Positions 8,042-32,587 of a stretch of DNA of 32,731 bases are shown piece after piece (positions within the stretch are counted from its first letter, which is position 1; each line of letters begins with the position of its first letter). This DNA is from Candidatus Moranbacteria bacterium CG23_combo_of_CG06-09_8_20_14_all_35_22 (GTDB lineage Bacteria; Patescibacteriota; Minisyncoccia; Moranbacterales; UBA2206): the NCBI GenBank assembly GCA_002772115.1, contig PCRW01000076.1, positions 1,802 through 34,532 of the forward strand, in the 5' to 3' direction. Both the position numbers and the translations under genes were made by a program. The notes beneath the pieces were generated by a model that made no database searches, had not been told where the DNA came from, and was given only the letters and a program-made list of their open reading frames with translations.

Positions 8042-8240
8042 TGTCCCCACCAAGAATCGAACTTGAATCTAGAGCTTCCGCCAAAGGCGGACAAGTAGGA
8101 GTCTCTGTTCCCCGCCTGCCATCGCCTGTGCCCTCGTCAAGAATCGAACTTGAATCTAGAGCTTAGGAGTCTCTTGTTCTATCCGTTGAACTACGAGGGC
8201 TCAGGCAAAGGCGGGCAGGTATCCATTGAACTATGAGGAC
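8042..8240 (-). pseudogene. Outer interrupted tRNA-Arg(CCU) copy
   Basis: GTCCTCA/TGGGGAC acceptor stem and an intact T arm; broken by a 109-nt insert in the D-loop (8111-8219) and an ~19-nt hairpin after the anticodon (~8077-8095). Confidence 0.85.
8129..8200 (-). tRNA. tRNA-Arg(CCU), intact, nested in the outer copy
   Basis: GCCCTCG/CGAGGGC acceptor, GTTC/GAAC D stem, CT-CCT-AA loop, TCAAG-TTCGATT-CTTGA T arm; 31-39 mismatch; no encoded CCA. Confidence 0.92.
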
Positions 8241-9800: not shown

Positions 9801-9886
9801 AACATATTTTACACTAACCTAATCATATTTTATTTACTTCACTTGGTCAATGGTTTTTTTTGAAATTTACGCTATAATCAACTTAT

Positions 9887-11887
9887 ATGAGTAGTTTGAT
9901 TTCTAGATTTTGGAACAATTTCAAAACTCAACCAGATATGTGGTTCTTTTTTGGGTTTTTATTAACTTTTACGCTAAGTATTAGGAAAGTAATGTTATAC
10001 TTTCCAATCCAAGGAACTTTCAATGAATATTCCGGAGTGTTTATCTACCTTTCAGATGTTTTTCTAATTTTAACTCTAGTTTTCTGGTTTATATCTATAT
10101 TATGCAATGATTTTATTATTTTGTCAAGGTACAGGCTGTGGATAAGTAGTGCTTTCCACAAGTTACCCCCACACCAAAATTATAAATATAATCTCTATAA
10201 AATTAAGATTTATCTAAAAAATAGCCTCAAAATGAGAGCAAAGCGTATTTTTAATTTTTGGTGGAGGGGCATGTACATATTTTTACCTCTATTTTTAGTT
10301 TTTCTTTCTTTTTTATCAATTCTATGGTCGCAAAATCTGTCAATAGCCCTTTTCCGATCATTTAAGCTTTTGGAGTTTTATTTATTATATCTTTATATTA
10401 TTTTCAGATTTGTTTCAAAATTGTTCCACGCCCGCCTGCCAAAAAATTGTTCCGCGCCTATCTGCGACAATAATGTTCCACGCCCGCCTGCCGGCGAGGC
10501 AGGTGGAACATCCATCAATGAGAAGCAAGGATCAACCTCTAATTGTTCCACATGGAACAATTTTGGGCGGGTGGAACAATTTTGGGCGGGTGGAACAATT
10601 TGGTTATTTTTTAACATCATTATAATTTTAGGCTTATTTCAAGCCATAATCGGCATCATTCAATTTTTCCTACAAAAATCAATTGACCTATTTTGGCTTC
10701 GAGAAAGCCTAATTTCACCAGAAATCCTTGGGGTGGCTAAAGTAATCTTAAATGGAGAAAAATACATCCGCGCCTATGGCCTTATGACACATCCTAATGT
10801 TTTGGGTGGATTCTTACTATTTTCTATTGTTATCACATTATTATATAAAAAAATGTTCCATATGAAACATCAACTACCCCCCTCGCCTTTACAAGGAGAT
10901 GGGCAAGGGGTGAGGTTAAGCGATGTTCCACGTGGAACAATATCAGAAAAAAAGATATCTTCAATATCCAATTGTTCCACATGGAACAATTGGATATTTA
11001 GGCTTATTTTAGCCATTCAAATTTTAGCGCTAATCTTAACATTCTCAAAATCAGCCATAATTGGGCTCATTATCGCTCTTATATGCCTATCTGTGCCTGC
11101 CCGCCAAAAAAATGTTCCATGTGGAACACTATCAAAAGAAGAGTTTTATCCAAATTCAAATTGTTCCACGTGGAACAATTCTAAAATACACCTCACCCAA
11201 TCCCTCTCCTTATTAAGGAGAAAGTGGCTCAAGATGTTCCATGTGGAACATTTGAAATTAATAATCCTCTCGGTCTTAATTATTTTAGTATCCATATTTT
11301 TCATAATTAAACCCAATTTGAATTCTTTATTTTTTAATTCCCTAAATGAACGCCTATTTTATCTAAATGTTCCATATGGAACATTTGAGAGTGATCTAGT
11401 ATTGGGAATTGGCGCCGGACAATCAGTCCTAATGATGCAAAAATTTTACTCACAAACTTTAGAATTCTGGCAATATCAGCCTATTCATAATGTTTTTCTA
11501 CTAATATTTAGCGAGTTAGGCTTAATCGGTCTAGGGTTATTTATTTGGTGGTTGTGGAAATTGTTCCACGTGGAACAATTTGAAAATTCACCTCATCCTA
11601 ACCTTCTCCTTATTAAGGAGAAGGAACTTGCCCCCCTCTCCTTTATAAGGAGAGGGGCAGGGGGTGAGGTTAAAATTGTTCCACATGGAACAATAGAAAA
11701 TAACGACTACATATTACACAATAATAATATATATTTGTCAAGTATAATATTCTCTCGATATTTCCAAAGAATTCTTTTAGGTCTTATTTTTATCATGCTT
11801 TTTGACCATTATATCTGGGATATCCAACAGGGGAGCCTCCTATTCTGGCTAACCGCCGGCTTTGTTGCTGGAATAAGCAGGAAATAA
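9887..11887 (+). CDS. O-antigen ligase/Wzy_C-like membrane protein with many repeat-derived inserts
   Basis: RAYGLMTHPNVLGG, TFSKSA, GIGAG, PIHNVFLLIFSELGLIG and FDHY motifs; many transmembrane segments. Confidence 0.82.
   Translation: MSSLISRFWNNFKTQPDMWFFFGFLLTFTLSIRKVMLYFPIQGTFNEYSGVFIYLSDVFLILTLVFWFISILCNDFIILSRYRLWISSAFHKLPPHQNYKYNLYKIKIYLKNSLKMRAKRIFNFWWRGMYIFLPLFLVFLSFLSILWSQNLSIALFRSFKLLEFYLLYLYIIFRFVSKLFHARLPKNCSAPICDNNVPRPPAGEAGGTSINEKQGSTSNCSTWNNFGRVEQFWAGGTIWLFFNIIIILGLFQAIIGIIQFFLQKSIDLFWLRESLISPEILGVAKVILNGEKYIRAYGLMTHPNVLGGFLLFSIVITLLYKKMFHMKHQLPPSPLQGDGQGVRLSDVPRGTISEKKISSISNCSTWNNWIFRLILAIQILALILTFSKSAIIGLIIALICLSVPARQKNVPCGTLSKEEFYPNSNCSTWNNSKIHLTQSLSLLRRKWLKMFHVEHLKLIILSVLIILVSIFFIIKPNLNSLFFNSLNERLFYLNVPYGTFESDLVLGIGAGQSVLMMQKFYSQTLEFWQYQPIHNVFLLIFSELGLIGLGLFIWWLWKLFHVEQFENSPHPNLLLIKEKELAPLSFIRRGAGGEVKIVPHGTIENNDYILHNNNIYLSSIIFSRYFQRILLGLIFIMLFDHYIWDIQQGSLLFWLTAGFVAGISRK
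10137..10145 (-). promoter_or_regulatory. DnaA-box consensus (TTATCCACA) inside the CDS
   Basis: TGTGGATAA on the + strand, with degenerate boxes just downstream (~10152-10172). Confidence 0.4.
10422..11692. promoter_or_regulatory. Cluster of parS centromere-like sites
   Basis: TGTTCCAYRTGRAACA at 10544, 10854, 10924, 10973, 11113, 11162, 11235, 11368, 11562 and 11677; one split site at 10474-10510; several half sites. Confidence 0.88.
10877..11669. repeat. CCTCACCC...CCCTCTCC-GGAGAGGG hairpin repeats (family C)
   Basis: Copies at 10877-10915, 11191-11224 and an inverted doublet at 11591-11669; more in pcrA at 30370-30403 and 32286-32321. Confidence 0.87.
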
Positions 11888-27674: not shown

Positions 27675-27746
27675 TGGGACTGACAGGATTCGAACCTGTG
27701 ACCAGGCGATTATGAGTCGCTCGCTCTACCACTGAGCTACAGTCCC
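27675..27746 (-). tRNA. tRNA with CAU anticodon, probably Ile2
   Basis: Cloverleaf with a GCGACTCATAATCGC anticodon arm typical of Ile2; G1-C72 paired, so not an initiator. Confidence 0.88.
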
Positions 27747-27768: not shown

Positions 27769-27885
27769 TTTATCCCCCACCACTTTTAGAGTGGGTCTGT
27801 GCAGACTCGAACTGCAGACCTCGTCGATGTCAACGACGCACTCTAACCAACTGAGCTACAGACCCTAAGAGTGGTGGGGGACAAG
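27769..27885. mobile_element. Inverted-repeat element enclosing tRNA-Val
   Basis: TTTATCCCCCACCACTTTTAG...CTAAGAGTGGTGGGGGACAAG. Confidence 0.75.
27792..27865 (-). tRNA. tRNA-Val(GAC)
   Basis: GGGTCTG/CAGACCC acceptor, CGTCG-TTGACAT-CGACG anticodon arm, TTCGAGT T-loop. Confidence 0.95.
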
Positions 27886-30205: not shown

Positions 30206-32587
30206 TTATATTTTCTTGATTGGCGCAATTGAAGCGGAAAGTTTTTTAAGCCCTGATTTAGAAAATGCCACAGTGATAATATCGCCTTGACTCGCCACGA
30301 TTAATCCTTCGCCAAAAGTTTCGTGCGATACTCGATCACCATCGGTAAAAATAATTTTTACCTTATTTTCCCTCTCCTTTCCAAGGAGAGGGTTAGGGTG
30401 AGGTTTAGTGTTTCCGCTTTCTATTAGATGTTCTGGCACATCGTCCAGAAATCGACTTGGCGCATTAATTTGAGTGGAACCAAAAATATTTCTCATACGG
30501 GTAAAAAGCAGATAAACTTTTTCCATCGCCCGAGTCACTCCCACATACATCAGGCGCCTTTCTTCTTCCATTTCGCTGTCATCTAATATACTTCGGGAAT
30601 GGGGCAAAATTCCTTCTTCCAATCCTGCGATAAAAACAATTTTAAATTCTAAACCTTTCGCACTGTGTAGTGTCATAAGATGAACCGCATCTTTCGCTTG
30701 ATCAATATTATCCGTGTCAGAAACCAAAGCTACTTCTTCTAGAAATAATCTTAAACCCTCCCCGCCTCGCGTCGACGAGCGGTCATCTCCGCGAGTCAAG
30801 GCGGGATTACTTTCATACTCGCTATATTTTTTGGCGACCGTCAAAAGTTCGCGTACATTTTCATTTCTCATTTCTCCTTCTTCCGTTCCATCCATCAGAA
30901 ATTTTTCATATCCTGATTCGCTATAAACTTTTTGAATGAAATCCGTAAGAATCAATTTTTCTTTGAGCTCCGCCATTCGTTTTATAAATTCGCAAAATTT
31001 TACAATTGCATCTATTTTTGAATTTTGAATTTTATTTTTTGGAACCTGCCTGCCGGTAGGCAAGGTTTGATCATTAGAATTTGAAAATTCATTGGAAATT
31101 GATATTTGGAAATTGGAAATTGCGAGGCCACAAGATATTAAATCTAAATTATTACTCCTAGCTATATTAATCCATTTTCCCAAAGTAACATCCCCAACGC
31201 CTCGCTTTGGTTCATTAATTATTCTTTCCAATGAAGTTTCATCATTAAAATTATTAATTAAACGCAAATAGGCAACCACATCTTTGATTTCTTTTCTTTG
31301 ATAAAATTTCACTCCACCAATAATTCGGTAGGGAATAGAAGCACGAAGCATCGCTTCTTCAATCATCCGTGATTGTGCGTTGGTGCGATAAAGCACCACG
31401 AAATCAGAAAACTTATATCTGTCATTCCGGACTTGATCCGGAATCTCTTGAGATCCTGAAACCCGCCCGCCGGCGAGACAGGCAAGTCCAGAATGACATA
31501 TTTTTTTTATCTCATCTACAATAAACTGCGCTTCTTCTTTTTCATCTTCCGCTTCAAACCTCGTTATCAAATGTCCGCTCTGGTTTTGAGTCCAAATTTT
31601 TTTGTCTTTGCGATTGATATTTTTAGAAATCACGCCATAAGCCGCGTCCAAAATATTTTGCGTGGAACGATAATTTTGGATTAATTTAATAGTTTTAACC
31701 TCTGGATAATCTTTCTCAAAATTTAATATATTAGTTATATCCGCGCCTCTAAATTTATAGATACTTTGATCATCATCACCCACAACACATAGGTTTCTAG
31801 ATTTTTGTGACAATAATTTAATAAGAACATATTGCGCGCGGTTGGTATCTTGATATTCATCCACCATAATATAGCGAAAAAAATTCTGATATTTTTCTAA
31901 CACTTCCGGAAATTTCTGAAAAATTTTAACTGTGATCATCAAAATATCATCAAAATCCAAAGCATCTTGTTCTTTCAATTTTTTCTGGTAATTTATATAT
32001 ATTTTCGCCACCATTTCTTCAAAATATCCGCCCACTCCCGCCAAAAAATCTTCTGATCCAATTAGTTCATTTTTCGCTTTGGAAATTGCGCCTAAAATTG
32101 TCTTGGGCTTGAATTGATCAATGTTTATTTCCATTTCTTTCATCACTTTTTTTATCAGCGCCAGCTGATCCTGATCATCAAAAATATTAAAGGAACTTTT
32201 ATATCCAACTTTTTCAATTTCCCGCCTTAGAATTTTTACACAAATAGAATGAAAAGTCCCGACAGTCGGCATGTCGGGATGGCCACCCTCTCCTTTATAA
32301 GGAGAGGGGCTGGGGGTGAGGTCATTCGCATCATTCGCATCAATTCGCGTATTTGCATTAAGCAACTCTTTTATTCTTTCTTTCATCTCTCCCGCCGCTT
32401 TATTGGTAAAAGTCACTGCCAAAATCCTCCTTGGATTGATCTTTTTTTCGCAAATCAAATACGCCACTCGATGAGTGAGCGCCCGCGTTTTCCCTGACCC
32501 CGCACCCGCAATAATCAAAACCGGTCCTTCCGTCGTCATCACTGCCTCTCTCTGTGGAGCATTAAGTTTTTCCAAAATTTCCTGCAT
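30206..32587 (-). CDS. pcrA: PcrA/UvrD helicase with multiple repeat-derived inserts
   Basis: AGAGSGKT, TFTNKAA, VDEYQD, QNYRS, TLHSAKGLEF and EERRLMYVGVTRA. Confidence 0.95.
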   Translation of the reverse strand: MQEILEKLNAPQREAVMTTEGPVLIIAGAGSGKTRALTHRVAYLICEKKINPRRILAVTFTNKAAGEMKERIKELLNANTRIDANDANDLTPSPSPYKGEGGHPDMPTVGTFHSICVKILRREIEKVGYKSSFNIFDDQDQLALIKKVMKEMEINIDQFKPKTILGAISKAKNELIGSEDFLAGVGGYFEEMVAKIYINYQKKLKEQDALDFDDILMITVKIFQKFPEVLEKYQNFFRYIMVDEYQDTNRAQYVLIKLLSQKSRNLCVVGDDDQSIYKFRGADITNILNFEKDYPEVKTIKLIQNYRSTQNILDAAYGVISKNINRKDKKIWTQNQSGHLITRFEAEDEKEEAQFIVDEIKKICHSGLACLAGGRVSGSQEIPDQVRNDRYKFSDFVVLYRTNAQSRMIEEAMLRASIPYRIIGGVKFYQRKEIKDVVAYLRLINNFNDETSLERIINEPKRGVGDVTLGKWINIARSNNLDLISCGLAISNFQISISNEFSNSNDQTLPTGRQVPKNKIQNSKIDAIVKFCEFIKRMAELKEKLILTDFIQKVYSESGYEKFLMDGTEEGEMRNENVRELLTVAKKYSEYESNPALTRGDDRSSTRGGEGLRLFLEEVALVSDTDNIDQAKDAVHLMTLHSAKGLEFKIVFIAGLEEGILPHSRSILDDSEMEEERRLMYVGVTRAMEKVYLLFTRMRNIFGSTQINAPSRFLDDVPEHLIESGNTKPHPNPLLGKERENKVKIIFTDGDRVSHETFGEGLIVASQGDIITVAFSKSGLKKLSASIAPIKKI
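30761..30805. repeat. Family A palindrome within pcrA
   Basis: Three differences from 337-381; encodes PALTRGDDRSSTRGG. Confidence 0.93.
31420..31498. repeat. Family F element within pcrA with a nested 21-bp family D hairpin (31462-31482)
   Basis: TGTCATTCCGGACTTGATCCGGAATC...GATCCTGAAA[CCCGCCCGCCGGCGAGACAGG]CAAGTCCAGAATGACA. Confidence 0.85.

Follow-up and report, generated by a model that had tools for sequence, protein, structure and literature searches.

In-frame insertion of short palindromic repeats into protein-coding genes is established for the Rickettsia palindromic elements (RPEs), on the account given in parts of two papers (PMC10969869, PMC3733652). Repetitive extragenic palindromes (REPs), which in REP/RAYT systems are linked to a REP-associated tyrosine transposase (RAYT), also occur inside genes of several species, and sections of the second paper place "many" of these copies in replication and repair genes, including UvrD/Rep, uvrA, and uvrB (PMC3733652). 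Here, we describe pcrA, which encodes a helicase of the PcrA/UvrD type, in a stretch of 32,731 nucleotides (the window; C43:1802–34532 in our numbering) from contig PCRW01000076.1 of Candidatus Moranbacteria bacterium CG23_combo_of_CG06-09_8_20_14_all_35_22. An earlier note, made from the letters of the window alone, had read this gene as a mosaic with five repeat-derived in-frame inserts. We find that four loops of PcrA have probably been lengthened, and the linker in front of its tudor domain partly rebuilt, by several families of hairpin-forming mobile DNA repeats.

The genome, here called G000, is a draft whose 82 contigs total 905,852 bases at a G+C content of 34.6%. Its pcrA locus is referred to as L001, and orthologue loci are numbered from L002 onward. 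The PcrA relatives found in the named genome collection belong to Candidatus Moranbacteria/Moraniibacteriota and to metagenome-assembled genomes of the "Parcubacteria group." A PcrA match was obtained in 40 of 41 related genomes, and 28 full open reading frames (ORFs) from 30 loci were aligned; L023 and L024 were dropped for lack of an ORF of at least 600 residues with a P-loop.

The pcrA ORF spans positions 30206–32587 on the minus strand and encodes 793 residues without a stop. The protein contains the UvrD-helicase domain (residues 8–295; PF00580, E = 3.7e-94) and the UvrD_C domain (residues 300–696; PF13361, E = 7.8e-74) typical of the PcrA/UvrD helicases of superfamily 1A, followed, past a flexible linker, by a PcrA_UvrD_tudor domain (residues 750–792; PF21196, E = 1.1e-08, over the cut-off). 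Its nearest solved relative is Geobacillus PcrA (1pjr, E = 5.9e-192), and the top Foldseek match of its AlphaFold2 (AF2) model is 3pjr_A. Domain order and conserved motifs are the same as in Geobacillus stearothermophilus PcrA and Escherichia coli UvrD. The motif residues (GSGKT, TFTNKAA, DEYQDT, QNYRS, and others) are invariant in 26 orthologues, and the ratio of nonsynonymous to synonymous substitution rates (dN/dS) against five congeners, calculated with the inserts excluded (approximately 582 codons), is 0.052 to 0.062. The gene is intact and under strong purifying selection, and judged by its sequence it encodes a working helicase, in agreement with the intact frame and motifs that the earlier note had described.

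Repeat intervals were defined by self-blastn of the genome as stretches of at least 14 nt with at least two other copies. This yielded 555 intervals in 62 linkage groups, covering 42,133 bases or 4.6% of the genome. Of these, pcrA contains exactly five, one in each of the five repeat-bearing segments that had been proposed: the interval 31420–31498 has identical coordinates, 30369–30407 and 30758–30809 are close to the 30370–30403 and 30761–30805 given before, and 31078–31121 and 32284–32322 fall inside the previously noted segments of about 31016–31122 and 32257–32360, respectively. Since the elements are nested or adjacent, single-linkage clustering of the intervals fused most families into one component of 317, and family counts were taken from regular expressions and BLAST instead.

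The repeat content of pcrA consists of four dispersed families (A, C, D, and F) and two short-period tracts. Family A is a palindrome of 42 or 45 nt that starts with CCCGCC and has 48 oriented copies in the genome. Family C, with 17 copies, starts with a CCTCACCC box, which is followed by a hairpin with the arms CCCTCTCC and GGAGAGGG. The D-type CCGGC hairpin recurs at eight further loci at 90% identity or more, and family F, a 79-nt unit with 16-nt inverted ends, has four other partial copies (78–88% identity). Tracts of the CAATTTC heptamer are found at three other loci (C31, C64, and C5), with a weaker match on C60, and the GCGAAT tract has just two weak matches elsewhere in the genome. The count of at least six families proposed earlier was slightly generous, in that two of the six components are short-period tracts. 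A hairpin that had been counted as a repeat at the start of the 32257–32360 segment (approximately 32257–32283) did not hold up: it has no other copy and partly overlaps conserved codons (MPTVGTF). The sites are listed in Table 1, together with the lengths of the corresponding loops in the aligned orthologues.

Table 1. Repeat-bearing sites of pcrA, in the order of the encoded protein. Positions are those of the window; the fold columns refer to the family C hairpin (sites 1 and 5) or the whole family F element (site 2), and the last four columns give the length of the loop (site 5: linker) in residues and its standing among the 28 aligned orthologues.
Site	Position	Strand	Residues	Content	Read as	Fold (kcal/mol)	z	Length	Median	Minimum	Standing
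1	32267..32353	-	79-107	9-nt-period GCGAAT tract, then family C copy at 32284-32322	LTPSPSPYKGEG	-10.1	-4.19	30	17.5	7	fifth longest
2	31420..31498	-	~364-389	family F element (79 nt; 16-nt terminal inverted repeats), with a D-type hairpin inside at 31462-31482		-20.5	-5.10	28	8.5	5	longest
3	31022..31111	-	~493-522	CAATTTC heptamer tract (31078-31121), AT-rich module, D-like hairpin at 31044-31062				42	20	18	longest
4	30761..30805	-	595-609	family A, exactly 45 nt	PALTRGDDRSSTRGG			21	6	5	longest
5	30369..30407	-	~728-740	family C copy; linker in front of the tudor domain	PHPNPLLGKERE	-10.5	-3.87	28	36	26	second shortest

Site 4 shows the insertion to the base. The 45 nt lie between AAT and GAG, and no base is duplicated or lost relative to the empty site (...AGT AAT / GAG GGT...), which is present in L002, 88% identical to the gene studied here, and in five other congeners. 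Family A entered pcrA as a unit of exactly 45 nt, and the target was not duplicated. Over the 75 codons that flank the site, the DNA is 97 to 99% identical to that of L002, which indicates that the insertion is recent. Among the 28 orthologues, site 4 is otherwise filled in L016 alone, by a different sequence.

Several properties of family A across the genome bear on how the frame survives. Its copies measure 42 or 45 nt in 42 of 48 cases, and each of the six reading frames is open in 43 to 47 of the 48, compared with 50% for random 45-mers of the genome, so that an insertion neither shifts nor stops the frame of its host. From the listing of copies, all unambiguous copies in long ORFs have 42 or 45 nt, and the variants of 40, 41, and 44 nt all lie outside long ORFs. 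The in-ORF copies (about 18 of the 48) are mostly translated as PASTRGD(D)RSSTRGG; a further two frames occur, as does the opposite orientation. The family A pattern was found in 25 of the 41 related genomes, including all eight of the genus, and its count is highest in G000 (43); a reversed control pattern gave no match in any genome.

Family C behaves similarly, with 14 of its 17 copies inside long ORFs, in both orientations and several frames. In pcrA, the reading frame differs between its two copies (LTPSPSPYKGEG vs PHPNPLLGKERE), which identifies the repeat as an element of the DNA and not of the peptide. These repeats are DNA-level elements that occur in both orientations and several frames, and the RPE-like, in-frame DNA inserts suggested by the earlier note are borne out by the exact pair of empty and filled family A sites and by the frames of family C.

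Two further observations concern copies of family A outside genes. Many intergenic copies are embedded in TACGAA-like short-period tracts (e.g., C5:10031, C24:16246, and C33:29046), which is not seen for in-ORF copies, and five intergenic copies have identical 12-nt flanks. Hairpin and tract may move or arise as a composite; sites 1 and 3 of pcrA also pair a tract with a hairpin. Another copy, at C66:270–314, sits where the D loop would be in a 5' fragment that resembles a tRNA (GCTCAGTTGG / element / TTAGAGCG). This fragment (C66:253–330, L038) lies 40 nt upstream of a normal tRNA-Ile. We considered an intron-bearing tRNA gene at this site and rejected it, as ARAGORN calls the neighboring tRNA-Ile alone.

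The same loops of PcrA are taken by different elements in sister species. At site 1, the family C copy is common, among the congeners compared, to L002 and L003 only; L004, L005, L018, and L022 have other repeat-like sequences in this loop, and L009 has none. Site 2 is occupied in L002, L003, L005, and L018 by a different hairpin-containing element; its hairpin is missing from L004 as a 21-nt unit, and L022 and L007 are free of inserts here. The module and hairpin of site 3 are common to L002 only, where they are 21 nt (three heptamers) shorter, and L018 and L022 contain the heptamer tract alone; the same module and hairpin are present in L022 at site 1. Of the linkers that correspond to site 5, those of L002 and L018 contain D-type hairpins, and that of L009 contains a C-like copy.

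Comparison with insert-poor proteins leads to the same loops. Relative to 1pjr, the extra residues of PcrA fall between aligned blocks, at residues 79–101, approximately 366–387, 486–526 (41 residues vs 16), and approximately 595–609, and at site 2 the alignment to Geobacillus PcrA has a gap of 22 residues. The insert-poor orthologues L029, L030, L021, and L013 have 709 to 721 residues, compared with 793 here. In the orthologue alignment called for in the earlier note, the loops of repeat-free orthologues at sites 1 to 4 are short; the equally long, homologous loops that would have refuted its reading were not seen there. The claim of five inserts stands for these four lengthened loops and fails for the segment at 30369–30407, where the linker is not longer than in the orthologues (Table 1). 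Based on the alignment, site 5 is best described as a repeat copy within a variable linker, with no net insertion.

Two other features of pcrA came out of the alignment. The patch encoding residues 253–312 (approximately 31652–31831 of the window), which contains motif III, has 64 to 68% nucleotide identity to L002 and L003, compared with about 90% to L002 elsewhere in the gene, and L002 and L003 are 80 to 86% alike in the patch. In this region G000 has DDDQSIYKFRGA, and all 25 aligned relatives have a DDWQGIYSWRGA-like sequence. The patch resembles a tract brought in by recombination from a more distantly related lineage. In L005 (G004:C4), the linker contains a TCATGCT heptamer tract of three units, which has four units in L004 and L002; the frame shifts, and the ORF stops before the tudor domain (725 residues open, matching residues 1–744 of the query). 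Either such heptamer tracts act as frameshift switches, or the shift is an assembly error. An Rfam scan gave no match anywhere in pcrA, and the sole matches in the window are four tRNA genes, all on the minus strand (16–97, 8129–8200, 27675–27746, and 27792–27865).

To place pcrA among the genes of its genome, we used stop-to-stop ORFs of at least 120 residues as gene proxies (n = 790, 87% of the genome). The 493 short repeat intervals are about 16-fold denser outside these proxies, with 350 intervals in the remaining approximately 13% of the genome and 143 inside proxies. No interval falls in 687 of the proxies; one is found in 80, two in 13, three in seven, five in two, and six in one, so that 103 of 790, about one in eight, carry at least one. 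With five intervals against 0.43 expected from its length, pcrA is among the top three. When the 143 in-gene intervals were spread over the 790 proxies by length, the mean number of genes with five or more was 0.012, and none of 5000 simulations reached the three observed. The other two are pheT, with five intervals, and a Wzy_C-like ORF in the window, with six. Three intervals each are found in uvrA, uvrB, uvrC, tsaD, a MiaB-like gene, and a second Wzy_C gene, and two each in priA, secA, ileS, argS, pnp, ksgA, pth, and miaA.

The earlier note had called so many families in one conserved gene extreme. This holds in a relative sense, given the rank of pcrA and the fact that three of its loops are the longest of 28; about one proxy in eight is affected, and intragenic REPs in UvrD/Rep, uvrA, and uvrB have been published, as stated in sections of PMC3733652. 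Some of the other affected genes have features of their own. The Wzy_C-like ORF (9878–11884, plus strand) encodes 669 residues with a marginal match to Wzy_C (O-antigen ligase), and its repeat intervals, the most in the genome, include three copies of family C in both orientations and several palindromes of the TGTTCCACGTGGAACA type. A family A copy is present in each of gyrB and recG, and gyrB (C60:3031–6042) also encodes an intein splicing domain (PF14890, residues 468–763).

PF01797, the family of Y1 transposases, has seven matches in the genome. For all six of the Y1 genes that were compared with NCBIfam, the best match is the REP-associated tyrosine transposase; one reaches the cut-off (80.1 vs 80), and the rest score below it. 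Of the seven, three have a hairpin family of their own in their flanks: the copies on C10 are inverted at both ends, those on C73 lie at both ends with one inside, and those on C72 lie at one end with one inside. Y1 genes occur in 30 of the 41 related genomes, where the flanks on either side have a 12-mer in common for 34 of 54 Y1 ORFs, compared with 130 of 2860 (4.5%) mismatched pairs of flanks. A further count, of 38 of 54 Y1 ORFs with a flank 12-mer in their interior, was set aside for want of a control. The Y1 gene of one relative (G010) is flanked by its own hairpin and contains two in-frame copies of it. REPtron-type units are thus common in the lineage, with hairpins that enter ORFs in frame. 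Some 300 nt away from the G010 gene lies a copy of family A, which was considered as its cognate repeat and discarded, being an in-frame insert in a neighboring, unrelated ORF of 325 residues; the hairpin of the G010 gene is a different one. Y1 genes with in-frame hairpin repeats lie at C72:3873–4583, C49:1503–2135, and C25:14697–15275 and at positions 1459–2103 of L175; in several of them, the inner hairpin belongs to the flanking family.

In the AF2 model of PcrA, all five sites overlap segments with a predicted local distance difference test score (pLDDT) below 50 (residues 89–94, 367–388, 496–517, 594–606, and 727–743). The sites are likely to be surface-exposed. The surface loops that the earlier note expected from such a mapping are in this way made likely, short of being established by a model of mediocre quality.

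Among the known systems, RPEs are like the pcrA inserts in their mode of action. Parts of PMC10969869 and PMC3733652 describe RPEs as several short palindromic families that sit in frame in housekeeping genes with no relation to one another, in a bacterium that is small, AT-rich, and dependent on a host, with proteins that are apparently functional, and some of these genes have been struck more than once. Palindromic, dispersed repeats in frame within intact ORFs are what we observe here. The differences are that the host belongs to another phylum (Patescibacteria/Moranbacteria), so that the likeness is one of action and no membership is claimed; that the units have 39 to 79 nt, whereas about 150 bp is given for the first RPEs in part of PMC10969869; that four dispersed families and two tracts share a single gene; and that family A is open in six frames and uses at least three.

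The likeness to REP/RAYT systems lies in the build of the elements, which are short imperfect palindromes forming hairpins of 20 to 45 nt in many copies, in the Y1 genes flanked by their own hairpins here and in relatives, and in the repeat load of uvrA, uvrB, uvrC, pcrA, and priA. Two other local families even have GTAG...CTAC ends. REPs are by definition mostly extragenic; the repeats of this genome taken together are about 16-fold denser outside ORF proxies, but families C and A have most and more than a third of their copies, respectively, in long ORFs. Families A, C, D, and F have no apparent terminal GTAG and no linked RAYT in the loci searched, and a Y1 gene flanked by the same palindrome is found for the families on C10, C73, and C72 but not for A, C, or F. 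[quoted passage not shown] Family A differs from MITEs in having no target-site duplication and in being shorter than the 70 to 300 bp given in part of PMC3733652, and no parent insertion sequence was found.

We regard an origin of the inserts in mobile, hairpin-forming DNA repeats as the probable explanation. Insertion would be roughly indiscriminate, with purifying selection keeping copies in structurally permissive loops only; the inserts would pass into mRNA and protein, where they would add loop residues that are probably disordered; and the repeats would spread in the manner of REP/RAYT systems, through a single-strand mechanism that depends on hairpins and leaves no duplication. Several results weigh against this explanation or parts of it. 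No Y1 gene adjoins family A, C, or F in 36 Y1 loci or among the 54 Y1 ORFs from 77 loci (about ten more Y1 matches in relatives lie outside the scanned loci), and the sole link to a Y1 gene is a D-like hairpin about 70 nt upstream of a 161-residue Y1 ORF in G005, on one side only. Since no such gene was found, we infer the REP/RAYT link of the pcrA families from their like build and from the absence of target duplication. Family A has no terminal GTAG, its CGTC being internal and not at the end, and no conserved target sequence was seen in its flanks. Exact boundaries are resolved for site 4 only, with no close empty site for sites 1 to 3 among the loci compared. The AF2 model is mediocre (mean pLDDT 70.7, predicted template modeling score 0.56), and low pLDDT is weak evidence for surface loops because seven more low-confidence segments lie in the conserved core. 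The gene counts rest on ORF proxies and not on gene calls. Finally, no RNA run holding pcrA was found, and we infer retention of the inserts in mRNA and protein.

Other explanations account for less of the evidence. That assembly or binning collapsed or mis-joined repeats into pcrA is hardly credible, even though the genome is a fragmented draft of 82 contigs and Logan contigs break within the family A copy. The runs holding pcrA are groundwater or aquifer metagenomes according to their records, and contigs of two of them that are not flagged as a possible source, X6 and X7, match pcrA with 0 differences and jointly cover all five segments (X7, 30768–32587 and 30206–30621; X6, 30206–30787 and 30768–31462). 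The gene is thus not a single-sample assembly artefact; the two samples may come from one campaign. The frame is open through all five segments, and inserts 1 and 3 are common to separately assembled congeners. No empty-site allele was seen among the DNA contigs of the runs, in which no contig joins the flanks across an insert when joints with a side shorter than 40 are counted as repeat cross-matches. Removal of the inserts after transcription or translation, in the manner of introns or inteins, is very improbable. It could draw on the hairpin-forming nature of all inserts, on the use of protein splicing elsewhere in the genome (the intein domain of GyrB), and on the family A copy in the tRNA-like fragment. 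Units of 39 to 79 nt are, however, far smaller than any self-splicing intron or intein, Rfam gives no intron match in pcrA, and the in-ORF copies always preserve the frame and contain no stop, which would be needless if they were spliced from RNA. Proteins with RPE-1 are reported to be expressed in part of PMC3733652.

The repeats might instead have spread without a transposase, by recombination or gene conversion or by slippage or template switching at hairpins and tracts, with the Y1 genes unrelated to the pcrA families. This is unlikely, yet it would fit the lack of a Y1 gene beside family A, C, or F in the scanned loci, the recombination-like mosaic identity of pcrA to L002 (68% of nucleotides at residues 253–312 and about 90% elsewhere, with 96 to 99% at residues 456–524 and 540–614), and the variation of tracts by whole units, which amounts to 21 nt at site 3 between L001 and L002 and, in L005, to 7 nt. 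What speaks against it is the precise insertion of 45 nt between unrelated codons with junctions that have no homology, unlike homologous recombination, the presence of 48 near-identical family A copies at unrelated sites, and the similarly built hairpin families found on either side of Y1 genes both here and in relatives. Co-option of the hairpins, as mRNA structures for translational pausing or message stability, DNA sites for gyrase or other proteins, or new loops that alter the partners of the helicase, with a concentration in repair genes that is adaptive instead of tolerated, would account for a clustering far above the length expectation (three genes with five or more intervals vs 0.012). 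It would also fit the standing of uvrA, uvrB, and uvrC (three intervals each) and pcrA (five) among the ten most laden of the 790 proxies, the same bias reported for REPs of other phyla in sections of PMC3733652, and the family C stem at site 1, which is unchanged between L001 and L003 where the preceding spacer differs. We nevertheless consider it improbable: congener inserts at one site differ in family, order, and presence, site 4 is filled only in G000 and, by other sequence, in one of 28 orthologues, the frame in which family C is read differs between its two copies, no site touches a conserved motif, and pcrA has no Rfam match.

Beyond the insertion of mobile hairpin repeats as such, a bolder version, which we put forward as a long shot, is that the Moranbacteria harbor a guild of hairpins adapted to life in coding sequence, with lengths in multiples of three and six open frames, that is partly driven by RAYT-type Y1 transposases, themselves with in-frame copies of their own hairpins, and preferentially colonizes genes of nucleotide excision repair and replication restart (uvrA, uvrB, uvrC, pcrA, and priA), striking the same loops again in one species after another. 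If so, the repair-gene bias would reflect targeting, or a conflict between hairpins and processing enzymes, and go beyond mere tolerance.

The kind of event described here is already known, and even the repair-gene bias is. New are the lineage, the variety of families that a single conserved gene contains, the exact pair of empty and filled sites, the re-use of loops across congeners, and the presence of Y1 genes with their own hairpins in the same genomes. In open-access papers and bioRxiv, we found no report of REPs or RPE-like inserts in the Candidate Phyla Radiation (CPR)/Patescibacteria. CPR genomes are usually called streamlined. The results extend the in-frame, palindromic colonization of essential proteins from Rickettsia and a few REP-rich bacteria to this radiation. 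The empty and filled site, the series of congeners at the same loops, and the co-occurrence of Y1 genes and hairpins in the same genomes together form a clean natural experiment. Such inserts inflate and diversify the "conserved" marker proteins of CPR bacteria, and because peptides encoded by the repeats make unrelated proteins look spuriously similar, there are effects on alignment, phylogeny, structure prediction, and searches for homologues. The repair-gene bias noted in 2013 in other phyla recurs here, which allows the reason for it to be tested by comparing phyla.

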